A stretch of 64,000 nt of DNA from NCBI GenBank assembly GCA_963664015.2, contig CAXXLF010000002.1, forward strand, positions 1,760,001-1,824,000. The letters are read 5' to 3'. Positions within the stretch are counted from its first letter, which is position 1, and every line of letters starts with the position of its first letter. Shown in pieces: positions 21,574-26,870 of the stretch. The position numbers and the translations under genes are program-made. This stretch comes from Candidatus Binatia bacterium. Lineage in GTDB: Bacteria > Desulfobacterota > Binatia > UBA9968 > CAXXLF01. The notes beneath the pieces were generated by a model. It was not told the DNA's origin. It searched no databases and saw only the letters and a list, made by a program, of their open reading frames with translations.

Positions 21574-22713
21574 GTGGACTCTGCAATTTCAGCTGGGACA
21601 CAAGGTCTCCTGCTCGGCCTTTCCAACCTTCAGTTGGGCCAAGTCGCATTGATCCTTCTAGGCTCCTTCCTTATCTACCTCGGTATCAAAAAGGGGTTTG
21701 AACCGTTGCTCTTACTCCCCATAGGGTTTGGAGCAATCCTGGTAAACATTCCGCAAGCGGGTTTGATGGATGAAGGCGGCTTCCTGCGCTTCTTCTATGA
21801 AGTGGGAGTTTTGACCGAGATCTTTCCGATCTTAATCTTTCTAGGGATCGGGGCGATGACGGATTTTCAGCCGCTATTGGAAAATCCCAAGATCATCCTA
21901 CTGGGAGCCGCTGGCCAGTTCGGTATATTTTTAACTCTTTTGCTGGCGTTGGCCGTTGGCTTCGACAAGCTCGATGCAGTGGCCATTTCTATTATTGGCG
22001 CGTGCGATGGTCCCACCGCTATTTATGTCAGTTCTAAGTATGCACCCCATCTCCTTGGGGCAGTTTCCGTTGCGGCCTATTCCTATATGTCGCTTGTACC
22101 ACTGATCCAGCCACCGATTATGCGCCTGCTCACCACCGAGCGGGAAAAGAGAATCGTCATGGGAGTTGAAAAGCGGCCGGTCTCCAAATCAACCAAGATT
22201 CTCTTCCCTATCGTCGTGACCGTGGCCGTTTCTCTCCTTGCGCCCAAGGGGACTCCCCTCATCGGTATGCTCATGCTGGGGAACCTGATGCGGGAGTCCG
22301 GTGTGGTGGAAAGGTTGAAGCATACCTCGGAAAACGAGATAGCGAATATTGTAACGCTTCTCCTCGGGCTGTCCATCGGGGCCACCATGGAGGCGGAGAA
22401 GTTTTTACGTGCAGAGACCCTTATTGTCCTTGCCTTGGGGCTCGTGGCTATCGGGCTGGATACAGTCATGGGCGTGCTTTTCGGAAAACTAATGTGCCTG
22501 CTTACCGGTGGAAAGATCAACCCTCTGATCGGCGCCGCGGGGATTTCCGCTTTTCCCATGGCTGCTCGCGTGGCGCAAACGGAAGGGCAGCGGTACAACA
22601 AAAAGAACTATCTCTTAATGCACGCAATGAGCGCCAATGCGGGAGGACAGATCGGCTCCATCGTCGCGGCAGCGGTAATGCTATCAGTCTTGGCGGGAAT
22701 GGGGATTGTGTAA
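21574..22713 (+). CDS. Na+-translocating decarboxylase beta subunit (OadB/MmdB/GcdB)
   Basis: EPLLL.PIGFG, GIGAMTDF, AAGQFGIF, DGPT, AAYSYM.LVP.IQPP and NPLIGAAG.SA.PMAAR. Confidence 0.95.
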   Translation: MDSAISAGTQGLLLGLSNLQLGQVALILLGSFLIYLGIKKGFEPLLLLPIGFGAILVNIPQAGLMDEGGFLRFFYEVGVLTEIFPILIFLGIGAMTDFQPLLENPKIILLGAAGQFGIFLTLLLALAVGFDKLDAVAISIIGACDGPTAIYVSSKYAPHLLGAVSVAAYSYMSLVPLIQPPIMRLLTTEREKRIVMGVEKRPVSKSTKILFPIVVTVAVSLLAPKGTPLIGMLMLGNLMRESGVVERLKHTSENEIANIVTLLLGLSIGATMEAEKFLRAETLIVLALGLVAIGLDTVMGVLFGKLMCLLTGGKINPLIGAAGISAFPMAARVAQTEGQRYNKKNYLLMHAMSANAGGQIGSIVAAAVMLSVLAGMGIV

Positions 22714-22860
22714 ACCCCGTACCAGGGTTGGCTGTCCATGGCATTTGTCCATGGTCTTTTGCGAAGGCGGATAACATTCACCCGATTTCAACTCGAGAGA
22801 CTCTTGGTCGAATGATGAGCGGCTCGCGACCAGAGGACAAGGCTAAAAGGTAAAGTAACC

Positions 22861-24417
22861 ATGGCGGCTATAGGGAGAGGCGATATTGAGAAGCGACTCC
22901 GGGATACCGAATCCCGTGTGCTTGAGGGAGATCCCAAGGCAGTAGAGAAACAACACAGCCAAGGCCTGCTTACTGCTCGGGAGAGAATCCAGGCGTTACT
23001 CGATCCAGGGAGTTTCGTTGAGGAGTTTATGCTTGCGGAAACCCAAGTCACCGATTTCGGTATGGCGAAAAAAAAACGGCCAACCGATGGAGTGGTGACC
23101 GGCTACGGGAAAATCGACGGGCGCCCCGTCCACGTTTTCGCTCAAGACCGTACGGTTCTGGCAGGTACCGTGGGTAGTGCCCACGCGGAAAAAATCGCCT
23201 ACGTGATACAAAACGCACGCCAACGAGGTATGCCCCTGATCGGTCTGTACGACTCCGCCGGTGCTAGGATTCAGGAAGGGCTCAGCGTAACGACTTCCAT
23301 CGGAAAGATCTTTTTTGAAAACAGCGTGACCTCTGGCGTGATCCCTCAGATCTCGGCCATAATGGGGCCCTGTATAGGTGTAGCTTCGTATTCGCCGGCG
23401 TTGACTGATTTTATAGTCATGGTTCAAGGAAGCAGCCAGATGTTCATCACGGGGCCGTCGGTCATCAAAGAGGTTCTAGGTGAGGAAGTCACCATGGAGG
23501 AATTGGGGGGGGCCAAAATTCATACGGAGGTTTCGGGAGTGGCGGACCTGGTCGCCAAAAACGATCAGGACTGTCTCACTCTCATTCGCAAGCTTGTAGG
23601 GTTTTTGCCCTCCAATTTCCGGTCGAGTCCCCCTGCCAAAGGTCCCCACCGTGATGCGGCGCGATTGCTGGACGGTATGGATAAGCTTGTTCCCGAGGAC
23701 ATGCGTAAAGCCTACAATGTCCTTCAGGTGATCAAGGCACTGGTGGATGATGGTAATTTTTTGGAACTCAAAGGGAAGTTCGCTCGAAACTTGGTCATTG
23801 GATTAGGCCGTTTGGACGGTCATCCGGTGGGAATTGTCGCCAATCAGCCCATGTTTCTTGCCGGGAGCCTTGATGTGGACGCTTCCGATAAGGCTTCACG
23901 CTTCATCCGCTTCTGCGATGCATTTAGTATTCCTATCGTGACGCTCATGGATGTACCGGGGTTTTTCCCCGGCAGGCAGCAGGAAGAAAAAGGGATTATA
24001 CGTCACGGAGCCAAACTTCTATACGCCTATGCGGAAGCCACGGTACCGAAGATTACGGTTGTCCTACGTAAAGGCTACGGGGGGGCTAAACAGGCCATGT
24101 GTACCCGTGAGATGGGTGCGGATCAATTTTTTGTATGGCCGGGCGTTGAACTTGCGGTGATGGGTGGAGGAGGAGCCGTTAACGTGATCTATCGCCGGGA
24201 GATTGAAGCTTCCATGGACCCGGAGCAAACCAGGCGGGAAAAGATGGAGGAGTACGCAGAGCGCTTTAGCGGTCCCTTCGAGGCCCTCTCCAAACAGTTT
24301 GCCCACGCGGCCATTCGCCCCGCCGAAACACGTGTTCGGTTAATTCAAGCGTTAGAAATCCTCAAGGAGAAAAAAGAAGAGAGACCGCAAAAAAAACACG
24401 GGACCATGCCCGTCTAA
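22861..24417 (+). CDS. acyl-CoA carboxyltransferase (MmdA/PccB-like decarboxylase alpha subunit)
   Basis: TARERI..LLD, DS.GARIQEG, MFITGP, RFIRFCDAF, DVPGF.PG..QE and KKHG..P. Confidence 0.93.
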   Translation: MAAIGRGDIEKRLRDTESRVLEGDPKAVEKQHSQGLLTARERIQALLDPGSFVEEFMLAETQVTDFGMAKKKRPTDGVVTGYGKIDGRPVHVFAQDRTVLAGTVGSAHAEKIAYVIQNARQRGMPLIGLYDSAGARIQEGLSVTTSIGKIFFENSVTSGVIPQISAIMGPCIGVASYSPALTDFIVMVQGSSQMFITGPSVIKEVLGEEVTMEELGGAKIHTEVSGVADLVAKNDQDCLTLIRKLVGFLPSNFRSSPPAKGPHRDAARLLDGMDKLVPEDMRKAYNVLQVIKALVDDGNFLELKGKFARNLVIGLGRLDGHPVGIVANQPMFLAGSLDVDASDKASRFIRFCDAFSIPIVTLMDVPGFFPGRQQEEKGIIRHGAKLLYAYAEATVPKITVVLRKGYGGAKQAMCTREMGADQFFVWPGVELAVMGGGGAVNVIYRREIEASMDPEQTRREKMEEYAERFSGPFEALSKQFAHAAIRPAETRVRLIQALEILKEKKEERPQKKHGTMPV

Positions 24418-24438: not shown

Positions 24439-24861
24439 CTACGGTTTTTCTGACTCACCCTTGGGTTGGGTAATAATTGCCAGCCGGGTCAAGCCTGCGC
24501 TGCGCGCCTGGTCCATAACCCAAACTACCGTACCGTGGAAGACCTGTGCATCGGCCTGGATCAAAATTTGAGTTTTTGACCCGGATCGTCCCGCCTCAAG
24601 CAATTGGCTCACGAGATCTTTTCTGTCAACTTTCTTTTCGTTGAGAAAAAGCTCCTGGTTGGAACTGATGACGATCCGCAAGTCTTTTTCCTGTTGCACG
24701 ATTTCTTGCGCAGTAGATTCGGGTAGGTTTACACGGATCCCTGGTGTTGAGATGAAGTTGAGGGAGAGGGCGAAGAAGATGAGCAGATTGAAGACCGTGT
24801 CCAGGAAAGGAGCCAGATCAATAAAGCTATTTTTGCTTCTTTGCGCGTTGCGGAAGCGCAT
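24439..24861 (-). CDS. exbD: biopolymer transport protein ExbD/TolR
   Basis: IDLAP.LD.VF.LLIFF and I.AD..V..G.VV.VMD motifs. Confidence 0.88.
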   Translation of the reverse strand: MRFRNAQRSKNSFIDLAPFLDTVFNLLIFFALSLNFISTPGIRVNLPESTAQEIVQQEKDLRIVISSNQELFLNEKKVDRKDLVSQLLEAGRSGSKTQILIQADAQVFHGTVVWVMDQARSAGLTRLAIITQPKGESEKP

Positions 24862-24874
24862 ATTCTTCGCCCTC

Positions 24875-25477
24875 TCACTTTTCCTTTAACAATTCCATCA
24901 AGCGGATCGAGTGCTCTTCCATTTGAAGGATCAGAGCATTGGTCTTACTCTGGAGGTACTTGTACATGACCAGAGTGGGGATCGCTACACTTAGACCCGC
25001 ATAGGTTGTAATCAGGGCCTCGGAAATGCCCCCGGCAAGGGAGCCGGGATTGACCACGGTTTGGGCGGAGATCCCTGAGAAGATCTTAATCATGCCGGAG
25101 ATCGTTCCCAATAGCCCCAACAGGGTGCTCACGCCGGAGATAGTGCCCAATCCCTCGACAAACCGCTCCAGTGACGCGCTCTCTTGTCGACCGACCTCTT
25201 CAAGGTATTCCTTGATCACTTCTCGTTTCCGTCCGAAGTTCTTGATACCAACTAGGAGGATACGCGCCATGGATGAACGGCTACGTTGGCAAAGGGAGAT
25301 TGCGTCAGGAATCCTTTCACTGCGAATCAGGACTTCGGCCTCGTTTAGGAAGCCTGAGGGAATGACACAGTTCCATCTAAGATTCCATAGGCGCTCGGTG
25401 AAAATGGCTACGGCTATGATAGAACAAAGGAGGATCGGGTACATAAAGATCCCCCCTTTTGCAAAGAACTCAAGCAT
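24875..25477 (-). CDS. exbB: MotA/TolQ/ExbB proton channel protein
   Basis: GG..M.PI, LGLLGT..GMI..F and GISEALITT..GL.VAIP. Confidence 0.88.
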   Translation of the reverse strand: MLEFFAKGGIFMYPILLCSIIAVAIFTERLWNLRWNCVIPSGFLNEAEVLIRSERIPDAISLCQRSRSSMARILLVGIKNFGRKREVIKEYLEEVGRQESASLERFVEGLGTISGVSTLLGLLGTISGMIKIFSGISAQTVVNPGSLAGGISEALITTYAGLSVAIPTLVMYKYLQSKTNALILQMEEHSIRLMELLKEK

Positions 25478-25704
25478 AACTTACCTCGCCACATCGATTT
25501 GGAAAATGTATCTCAGGTGAATCGTTATAGCAACGGCTAAGGAGGTGATCCAGCGGTTGGTTCATCATGAATGAGCAACGCTAACCTAAAACGATCTGCA
25601 TTTTAGTTTTGCACCAACATTGATTCCGATGAATGAATAAAGATGAAAATGAAAAAAAGAGAAATTAATTTTTTTAAATATGTTTGGAAAATAATATTTT
25701 TTTC

Positions 25705-25734
25705 TTGACATACAATTTATAGTGTCCCTATAAT
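25705..25734 (+). promoter_or_regulatory. consensus sigma70 promoter with AT-rich UP region
   Basis: TTGACA 25705-25710, 18 nt, TATAAT 25729-25734; preceded by an A/T-rich tract (25640-25704). Confidence 0.8.
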
Positions 25735-25852
25735 AAAAATGTCTACAAAATGTAGGAGGGTCTTTTAGGTTATAGAATCTTCGCCTGAGCAATTAATTTT
25801 CCCTCTTTCTTTCGTAGATACCCATTTGCGGTAATCTAGAAAGGAGGTGCCT

Positions 25853-25906
25853 ATGGCAGCGAAGAAGAAGGCAAAGGCAAAAAAGAAGGCTAAAAAAAAA
25901 AGATAA
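25853..25906 (+). CDS. 17-aa Lys/Ala-rich microprotein MAAKKKAKAKKKAKKKR
   Basis: SD AAAGGAGGTG 25840-25849, ATG 25853, TAA 25904-25906; flanked by its own promoter and terminator. Confidence 0.7.
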   Translation: MAAKKKAKAKKKAKKKR

Positions 25907-25992
25907 CTAAGTTTGAGTAGCTGTGGTGTGGTGGCGATGGTTTGTACCCTCATTCATCTCAGGCGATAGGGCGGCTGTTTTGGCTGCCCAAA

Positions 25993-26038
25993 GGACAAGG
26001 CCCTTCGGTTGTAATGACCGAAGGGCCTTGTCCATTTT
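25993..26038 (+). terminator. strong hairpin terminator
   Basis: Perfect 17-bp stem GGACAAGGCCCTTCGGT/ACCGAAGGGCCTTGTCC followed by ATTTT. Confidence 0.8.
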
Positions 26039-26051
26039 GGTCTCAGTGTAA

Positions 26052-26870
26052 ATGCAGAAACGAATTGCTCACATCTCTGTTGATCTGTACCCCCCGGAAA
26101 ATCCTAAATTTAAGTCGCGTATCATTTTAGTACACGGTCTGTGGAACAGTAGTGCATGCTGGGTCCAATGGGCTACCCGTTTGTCCAACTTGGGATGGGA
26201 ATGCTGGGCTGTGAACTTGGGGGATCGGACTGCAGGTAACGCAGTGGAGATTATGGCGGGGCTGACCTTGGACCAATGTGTGGAAGAACTCAAGCACGTG
26301 ATTCGTGCGGCCGGACCGGACCCGGTGATGGTTGCCCACGGTATGGGATGGGTGCCAACGCTCAAGGCAAGCCAAGGGGAAGATCTAGCAGGGCTCCTTT
26401 TGATCTCGCCGCCGAATGCGTGGAGTGTTCCCAACGAGGCAGGGCGTCCGCTTCGGTTGCTGAGATTGAAGTATCTAGTACCTCTTTCTCTCGGTTGGTC
26501 CGTTCGCATCCGGGAAGGGGACTTCTCTCGCTACTGGCTTTCATGCCTACCGGTTGCGCGTCACGAGCAAGTTCTGAGAAACCTGGTGCCCGAGTCCAGC
26601 CATTTGATCAAGCTCCTATTTCAACCTTCGTTTATCATAGAGCAATCATCCCAGGGATGGCCAGTGCTGGTCATGGGAGGGACCGAGGATCCAGTGGCGC
26701 CGATGGTGTCCGTACGGCAGACAGCCGAATGCTTGGCTGCCGAATGCCGGGAATATTCTGGCCACGGTCACTGGTTGCTGGAAGAGGAGGGATGGGAGGC
26801 GATCGTCAACGACGCCCACCGGTGGTTGATACAGGGCCTCGGAGAGGCCGTGCTTTTGAACCCTTCCTGA
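26052..26870 (+). CDS. alpha/beta hydrolase fold protein (nucleophile Ser absent)
   Basis: LVHG.W, AHGMG at the nucleophile elbow, G.ED and GHGHW. Confidence 0.75.
   Translation: MQKRIAHISVDLYPPENPKFKSRIILVHGLWNSSACWVQWATRLSNLGWECWAVNLGDRTAGNAVEIMAGLTLDQCVEELKHVIRAAGPDPVMVAHGMGWVPTLKASQGEDLAGLLLISPPNAWSVPNEAGRPLRLLRLKYLVPLSLGWSVRIREGDFSRYWLSCLPVARHEQVLRNLVPESSHLIKLLFQPSFIIEQSSQGWPVLVMGGTEDPVAPMVSVRQTAECLAAECREYSGHGHWLLEEEGWEAIVNDAHRWLIQGLGEAVLLNPS

Follow-up and report, generated by a model that had tools for sequence, protein, structure and literature searches.

What is made by a bacterial DNA unit that carries its own promoter and terminator and, between them, an open reading frame (ORF) of only 17 codons dominated by lysine and alanine? 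The question is raised by a unit of approx. 300 nucleotides (nt) in a 64,000-nt stretch of a Candidatus Binatia bacterium (GenBank assembly GCA_963664015.2, contig CAXXLF010000002.1, positions 1,760,001 to 1,824,000, forward strand; hereafter the window, whose positions are used below). Its product might be a peptide, the RNA itself, or a leader that controls the genes downstream. The reading favoured here, to which we assign a probability of roughly 0.55, is that of a lineage-specific, single-copy micro-gene for a free polycationic peptide, the messenger RNA (mRNA) of which has its ends tied together by a conserved structure. The narrower claim that the unit is a real, expressed and translated micro-gene appears highly probable. 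A first-pass annotation, made from the letters of the window, had described a promoter, a Shine-Dalgarno (SD) sequence, the ORF, a GGGCGGC/GCTGCCC hairpin, a terminator and an inverted repeat, all of which were found in place (Table 1).

The evidence that carries the favoured reading is the coding signature of the ORF across its relatives, for which 82 loci were reduced to 67 distinct copies (alignment A2) by dropping 10 with identical transcripts and 5 cut by the end of a locus. In 67 of 67 copies, the AAGGAGG core of the SD lies 5 nt from the ATG, and in the window the SD is complementary over 10 nt to the 3' end of the genome's own 16S ribosomal RNA (rRNA), which ends in ...CACCUCCUUUCU; judged by this complementarity, it is the strongest SD possible for that 16S rRNA. 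The frame closes with an in-frame stop in every copy (TAA in 56, TAG in 11), after 12, 13, 15, 16, 17 or 19 codons, and these changes in length are not compensated downstream. Lysine accounts for 676 of the 947 sense codons that follow the ATG (71%; AAG 379, AAA 297) and alanine for 248 (GCC 102, GCA 73, GCT 61, GCG 12), which leaves only 23 codons for all other residues (R 10, T 10, V 2, P 1). Codons for Glu, Asn and Gln are each a single substitution away from those for Lys, yet none occurs among the 947, and neither acidic nor amide residues are encoded. Third codon positions vary freely, and the first and second positions of the Lys codons are almost unchanging. The commonest peptides are MAAKKKAKKKAKKKKK (19 copies) and MAAKKKAKKKKKK (11 copies); the N-terminal MAA is conserved, as are alanines at positions 3, 7 and 11, i.e., at about every fourth residue, which would line one face of a helix.

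Because Lys and Ala codons are kept while third positions are free, and because stops and spacing are kept with them, the ORF is under coding selection. Its periodic pattern points to purifying selection on a peptide and not on a purine-rich RNA motif. The SD distance, the conserved frame and the purifying pattern at the amino-acid level are those of a protein-coding micro-gene, and the micro-ORF with a near-ideal SD that the first-pass annotation had proposed is thus well borne out. Within the window genome, the micro-ORF is single-copy: neither a second copy nor another SD-led Lys-rich micro-ORF of its kind was found.

Table 1. Features of the unit, in window positions
Feature	Position	Strand	Remarks
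UP-like A/T-rich tract	25683..25704	+	abuts the -35; consensus TAAAAT-N3-ATTTTTTTC
Sigma-70-type promoter, TTGACA-N18-TATAAT	25705..25734	+	-35 TTGACA at 25705-25710, -10 TATAAT at 25729-25734, spacer 18 nt; promoter scan 12/12
Predicted primary transcript, ~300 nt	25741..26038	+	start inferred from the -10, end from the terminator
5' element CUACAAAAUGUAGGAGGGUCU	25743..25763	+	family consensus CCUACAAAAUAUGGGAGGGUUU; columns invariant or near-invariant
Long-range helix P1, 5' strand TCGCCTGAG (RNA UCGCCUGAG)	25781..25789	+	P1 brackets the ORF
Extended Shine-Dalgarno AAAGGAGGTG (RNA AAAGGAGGUG)	25840..25849	+	AAGGAGG invariant
Micro-ORF, 17 codons + TAA	25853..25906	+	ATG 25853, TAA 25904-25906; translates to MAAKKKAKAKKKAKKKR
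G/U-rich tract UGUGGUGUGGUGGCGAUGG	25922..25940	+	conserved block in alignments A2 and A3
CCCUC(C) anti-SD-like element	25946..25952	+	near-invariant; family consensus AAACCCUCCUUA
Long-range helix P1, 3' strand CTCAGGCGA (RNA CUCAGGCGA)	25958..25966	+	CUCAGGC invariant in 67/67
Hairpin P2, GGGCGGC / GCUGCCC	25969..25989	+	arms 25969-25975 and 25983-25989
Intrinsic terminator	25993..26038	+	stem 25993-26033, 17 perfect bp (19 with G-U), A-UUUU tail

The promoter is conserved together with the ORF. TTGACA is kept in 66 of 66 distinct upstream regions (56 parsed with a regular expression, 10 by reading the lines), and TATAAT in 42, with near variants in the remainder; most of the 22 positions of the UP-like tract hold a single base in 53-56 copies of the 56 regions parsed in this way (66 distinct). 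The whole window genome of 3.5 Mb contains just five perfect TTGACA-N17/18-TATAAT sites, of which the promoter of the unit is one. Such sites also occur in a separate setting outside the window, at C2:1217937-1218060 (+), where a tandem repeat of ~41 nt is present in at least three copies in the printed context and each copy bears a perfect TTGACA-N17/18-TATAAT. The 301-nt RNA folds with a z-score of -4.99, and none of 100 shuffles folds equally well. That the whole is a functionless chance arrangement can hardly be entertained, since 67 distinct copies conserve the unit, and its description as a non-random unit with a very strong promoter stands on the promoter, the fold and the retention of the whole unit in relatives.

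How widely is the unit distributed? The window genome belongs to one family (f1) of an order in which two further families were sampled, namely a sister family (f2) and a third (f3). A 411-nt query around the unit gave DNA matches in 21 of 41 related genomes at 65-83% identity (f1 4/4, f2 16/18, f3 0/18), and all 15 loci retrieved retain the promoter, SD, ATG and Lys/Ala ORF. A covariance model of the 64-nt 3' domain (R1), run on 61 genomes, matched 30 of them with E-values of 1e-7 to 1e-22 (f1 4/4, f2 25/28, f3 0/28), with one strong match per genome; the three f2 genomes that were missed are 78%, 87% and 98% complete. In one f2 genome, a weak second match to the 3' domain (G019:C46:6187-6243 (-), E 2.5e-4, 26 bits) may be a degenerate second copy or chance. 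The conservation of SD, ORF and flanking helix in relatives, on which the earlier proposal depended, is therefore found in f1 and f2.

Searches by pattern reached further. An exact-pattern scan of 185,579 species genomes, in which nothing but the SD, ATGGC and both strands of P1 was fixed, returned 67 stretches, every one of which encodes a Lys-rich ORF of 12-19 residues that begins M-A-(A/T)-K. Their submitters labelled them Candidatus Binatia (26), Deltaproteobacteria or delta proteobacterium (29), Syntrophobacter or Syntrophobacteraceae (7), Verrucomicrobiia (2), and Chloroflexota, Thermodesulfobacteriota and Eisenbacteria (1 each), and all are metagenome-assembled genomes. In a sample of the phylum (401 genomes), the pattern of P1 plus SD gave eight matches, of which just those in the window genome and in one genome of the same order are members of the family; the other six, compared at the level of the pattern, share only its fixed letters. 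In a sample of the class (151 genomes), an ORF pattern matched eight times, always in f2 (8/9) and in none of 18 other families; the f1 version, present in the window genome and in one other sampled f1 genome, does not fit that pattern. Outside this order, neither sample contained anything comparable.

The unit is also seen in RNA libraries. Four metatranscriptome runs from four studies yielded contigs of 184-217 nt that lie in their entire length inside 25754-25972, at 95-100% identity, and further contigs (one with a depth of 74) match the SD and the start of the ORF alone, after which they continue as the copy of a relative. No RNA contig was found on the flanking exbB, on the hydrolase gene downstream or on 25973-26040, and this uncovered part proves nothing about read-through or the 3' end. 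Of the earlier claim of a highly transcribed RNA, the transcription is thus supported by contigs from four studies that cover the unit; on its abundance the contigs are silent, so that they offer no more than a hint of abundant expression.

If the ORF were all that mattered, the remainder of the transcript might be expected to drift; instead, the untranslated parts are conserved about equally to the ORF. The two strands of the 9-bp inverted repeat, P1, enclose the SD and ORF over a span of ~170 nt; seven of its pairs never vary among the 67 copies, and one further pair is compensatory (C:G 57, U:G 5, U:A 3). In P2, seven of eight pairs change on both sides and 96.8% of alignment cells pair, with the loop letters GU..U.G invariant while the stem covaries. 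The terminator has compensatory changes in 8 of 11 scored pairs and the form of an intrinsic terminator, with a short U-run (four U after an A). The covariation score of the complete structure is matched by none of 500 shuffles, and pairing falls from 94.7% to 39-57% in slid controls. Thus, of the helices that the first-pass annotation had singled out for a covariation check, P2 and the terminator covary, and the bracketing repeat is conserved with its one compensatory pair. The window has the small 5' hairpin (25743-25755), but relatives do not maintain it as a structure: only 74% of their cells pair, and the covariation does not exceed that of shuffles. What is conserved at the 5' element is sequence rather than a hairpin. 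An all-against-all scan of columns gave, beyond P2 and the terminator, scattered pairs only, which resemble clade-linked transitions and were not used.

The 5' element contains an SD-like GGGAGGG, and the CCCUCC element in the 3' region is complementary to it and to the SD alike. Pairing of the 5' GGGAGGG with CCCUCC is possible in 91.8% of cells, with 0 compensatory changes and columns that hardly vary; pairing of the SD with CCCUCC is possible in >90% of cells, again in columns that hardly vary, and has no covariation support. Nested folding yields either P1 or the helix between 5' GGGAGGGUUU and 3' AAACCCUCC, never both, and because the two are mutually exclusive in such folds, a pseudoknot is proposed: the crossing helix GGGAGGGUUU:AAACCCUCC would, together with P1, close the mRNA, a model that is as yet unproven. 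Two simpler candidates were rejected, i.e., a local stem that sequesters the SD (mean pairing probability of the pyrimidine-rich leader alone 0.86 vs. 0.78 in shuffled sequences, about what its composition would yield) and a small CCC/GGG hairpin in the leader, which is not supported in relatives.

Such conservation of the non-coding blocks raises the possibility that the RNA itself is the effector, either as a small RNA (sRNA) or as a dual-function RNA, with single-stranded motifs (the CCCUCC element, the G/U-rich tract and the P2 loop are candidates) that act in trans on mRNAs or on a protein; the micro-ORF would then be a side product or serve to control the fold. The model of the 3' domain needs nothing else of the unit to recover every copy, the P2 loop is invariant on a covarying stem, and in its length (~300 nt) and in having both a strong promoter and a terminator to itself, the transcript has the architecture of a small RNA. 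Nonetheless, strong selection at the amino-acid level would not be expected of a mere spacer; the SD is of maximal strength; no target can be named, and no Rfam family matches. Neither Hfq (PF17209) nor CsrA (PF02599) had a match in the window genome, which is 97% complete, whereas both models detect control genomes; this removes the usual partners only. Taken together, an RNA effector appears unlikely. A search of 41 genomes of the order gave 0 matches to Hfq, and a related idea, that the unit replaces Hfq, was dropped because all three families lack it alike.

The genes around the unit bear on a second rival. Upstream genes vary, and no more than 11 of 82 loci have exbB(-exbD) as a divergent neighbour. 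Downstream, 72 of 82 loci have an alpha/beta hydrolase gene and/or a ccdA-like gene (DsbD_TM) in the same orientation, and no locus in which these genes were found departs from this arrangement; the cluster also includes an AhpC/TSA-thioredoxin (resA-like) gene and folE (GTP cyclohydrolase I). In the window, the hydrolase gene (26052-26870) begins 14 nt past the T-run; it belongs to no specific NCBIfam family, all matches being far below the cut-off. Extrapolated to residue 1, the gap has a median of 36 nt in the 34 distinct loci in which the hydrolase is next and is often 25-42 nt. In 30 of 64 scored loci, the hydrolase is not next, and the gap, likewise extrapolated, to the first residue of the resA-like protein is mostly 100-170 nt (range 54-373). 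The gap between terminator and hydrolase start is so short that it leaves no room for a separate promoter; the terminator therefore probably leaks, which makes the unit less than fully self-contained, and the hydrolase gene, to judge by this layout, probably depends on read-through. The statement in the first-pass annotation that no larger gene uses the promoter could accordingly not be upheld. Farther upstream in the window, before exbD-exbB, genes for the beta subunit of oxaloacetate decarboxylase (OAD_beta) and a carboxyltransferase stand side by side (21574-24417), a pair that recurs beside the unit in the loci of two relatives (L025 and L052).

It might be argued from this arrangement that the ORF is a leader peptide, in which Lys codons sense lysyl-tRNA (transfer RNA), or a poly-Lys run stalls the ribosome, and thereby set read-through of the terminator into the hydrolase, resA-like, ccdA and folE genes. 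The high share of Lys codons, the constant downstream synteny, the short gap to the hydrolase and the short, interrupted U-tract would all suit such an attenuator. Several points speak against it. No pairing that competes with the GC-rich terminator of 17-19 bp was seen in folds, alignments or the covariation scan, none of which was a dedicated search. From the stop codon it is 42-59 nt (median 46) to the 3' strand of P1 and ~90 nt to the terminator, which puts a stalled ribosome out of reach. Conservation extends to the positions of Ala and to the N-terminal MAA, for which a pure codon sensor would have no use; nothing links the downstream genes to lysine; and the hydrolase is not next in nearly half of the scored loci, where the resA-like gap is long. 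The alternative of a lysine-sensing or pausing leader, which the earlier annotation had allowed for, is thus disfavoured and, in our estimate, very doubtful.

Type I toxin mRNAs typically have a long-range helix that joins their 5' and 3' regions around a tiny ORF, and P1 is such a helix. The antisense of the ORF, moreover, reads as a hydrophobic frame rich in Phe, Leu and Ala (a 62-residue ORF, 25765-25953 (-)), which is a by-product of the purine-rich sense strand. Against a toxin-antitoxin-like module stands the sense peptide, which has no hydrophobic residue (K, A, R, T, V and P only). Only 5 of 67 copies have an ATG upstream of the antisense frame, and the promoter scan found no promoter-like site on the minus strand of the unit. 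Given this composition and the lack of a conserved antisense partner, the likeness that had been pointed out is rejected; like a chance arrangement, a toxin module has next to no probability here.

We return to the polycationic micro-gene and to how it might work. In the proposed mechanism, the near-perfect sigma-70 promoter with its UP-like tract would drive the RNA of ~300 nt, on which the 10-nt SD, at a fixed spacing from the ATG, would start translation of 12-19 codons into a polycationic peptide of (A)KKK repeats. This peptide would be the main product, a small polycation that sits on nucleic acid, with the ribosome or RNA as its likeliest target and the nucleoid as the second. The 5' GGGAGGGUUU element, P1, CCCUCC and P2 would close the mRNA around the SD and ORF, and this closure might set stability or translation, possibly through feedback by the peptide. 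Through its probably leaky terminator, the unit would also head the hydrolase, resA, ccdA and folE genes. The composition of the peptide suggests that it exerts its effect by binding to ribosomes, RNA or DNA, a view put forward tentatively, at somewhat less than even odds. Binding to the ribosome or to RNA is attractive because tiny, lineage-restricted polybasic ribosomal proteins exist and because a conserved fold around an SD recalls the autoregulated operons of ribosomal proteins. A bolder version of the same idea, reached by analogy and decidedly unlikely, would make the peptide a ribosomal or ribosome-associated protein peculiar to this lineage and, at 12-19 residues, smaller than any other known, with L20-like feedback through the pseudoknot and P2 that couples its synthesis to the pool of free rRNA.

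Several observations weigh against the favoured reading. The case for translation is drawn from sequence comparison. Contigs from RNA libraries, which may carry DNA, cannot fix the strand, ends or level of a transcript. The untranslated parts match the ORF in conservation, which leaves room for the RNA itself as the effector; and the same-strand synteny, together with the short gap to the hydrolase, suits a leader role equally well. The pairings of CCCUCC with the 5' element and with the SD both lack compensatory change, and sequestration of the SD exceeds that in 95% of shuffles in only 10 of 67 copies. When the RNA was compared with the rRNA operon of the window genome for likeness and for complementarity, only chance 8-13-mers emerged, and hence there is no sign of rRNA mimicry. 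Finally, f3 manages without the unit: KKKAKKK occurs in 0 of 5 of its genomes and nothing similar lies near ccdA in three, so that no fused or replacement form was found among the five genomes searched by pattern or in the three ccdA neighbourhoods.

In its extremely short, trivially composed peptide on an elaborate, conserved mRNA, the unit is unusual, and it appears to represent a new family. A search of Rfam release 15 with window positions 24800-26800, at E-values up to 10, returned only hairpin-like microRNA matches on the terminator and a Phe_leader on the wrong strand (E 8.4), and the loci of seven relatives gave 0 matches at the gathering score. In the literature, subscription journals being outside the coverage, no such peptide or RNA was found, even with literal peptide strings, and 12-19 residues lie below the 20- or 30-residue floor of protein-family searches. 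A gene of 12-19 codons is likewise invisible to gene callers and ORF tracks, although few loci of this uncultured lineage are as well conserved and, probably, as highly expressed. If translated, its product would rank with the shortest conserved proteins of bacteria, as a natural poly-Lys/Ala polycation with a level governed by the fold of its mRNA, and it would raise the questions of what free polycationic peptides do at ribosomes, RNA or the nucleoid and how poly-Lys is translated efficiently. In addition, the RNA model of 64 positions, with one match per genome, provides a compact marker of two Binatia-like families.

In kind, the unit stands between the genes of small basic proteins and dual-function small RNAs. 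Among the latter, SgrS/SgrT, RNAIII/delta-haemolysin and SR1/SR1P likewise combine their own promoter and terminator with a micro-ORF beside a conserved non-coding structure; the peptide of the present unit is far smaller and of trivial composition, and its genome yielded no Hfq or CsrA. With attenuator leaders, such as the his, trp, leu and thr leaders and the polycysteine small ORFs of mycobacteria, it shares a very short ORF that is dominated by one amino acid and lies upstream of a terminator and same-strand genes. It differs from them in the distance between the ORF end and the terminator, in the conservation of other residues, in cargo without a lysine connection and, as far as searches not dedicated to it can tell, in having no antiterminator. 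Long-range closure of an mRNA is known from the L20 pseudoknot of the infC-rpmI-rplT operon and from the hok toxin mRNA. In the unit, too, conserved far-apart pairing (P1) encloses the SD and start codon, possibly with a crossing helix; unlike in those systems, compensatory change is confined to a single pair of P1 and is absent from the crossing helix, and the peptide is not like a hydrophobic toxin.

Lys/Ala-rich tails are known from nucleoid proteins such as the histone H1-like Hc1 and HU. The window genome itself encodes, outside the window, a SWIB/MDM2-domain protein of 121 residues (PF02201, E 3e-28; C2:1604778-1605143 (-), L096 179-544) with a 45-residue Lys/Arg-rich N-terminal tail, so that this organism evidently makes use of Lys/Ala tails on a protein likely to bind DNA. 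The composition is the same as in the micro-peptide, and the opening of the tail, MAAKKKKAKK, nearly coincides with the MAAKKKAKAK of the micro-peptide; at such low complexity, the likeness is weak evidence of common descent, and unlike these tails, the micro-peptide is free-standing, with no folded domain attached.

The closest parallels to a translated product might be the tiny polybasic proteins of the ribosome, to which Thermus bTHX and eukaryotic eL41 belong. Similar proteins, restricted to single lineages, long went unannotated: mycobacterial bL37 has 24 residues, places an alpha-helical N-terminus in an rRNA pocket and is confined to actinobacteria, and a mycobacterial eL41-like protein, first called uL41 and later bS22, occupies the eL41 site (PMC5876184). 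Compared with bL37 and bS22, the predicted micro-peptide is shorter (12-19 residues), variable in length and nearly pure Lys/Ala; what it has in common with them is a minute size, a strongly basic character, a gene that annotation overlooked and restriction to a single branch of the bacteria.

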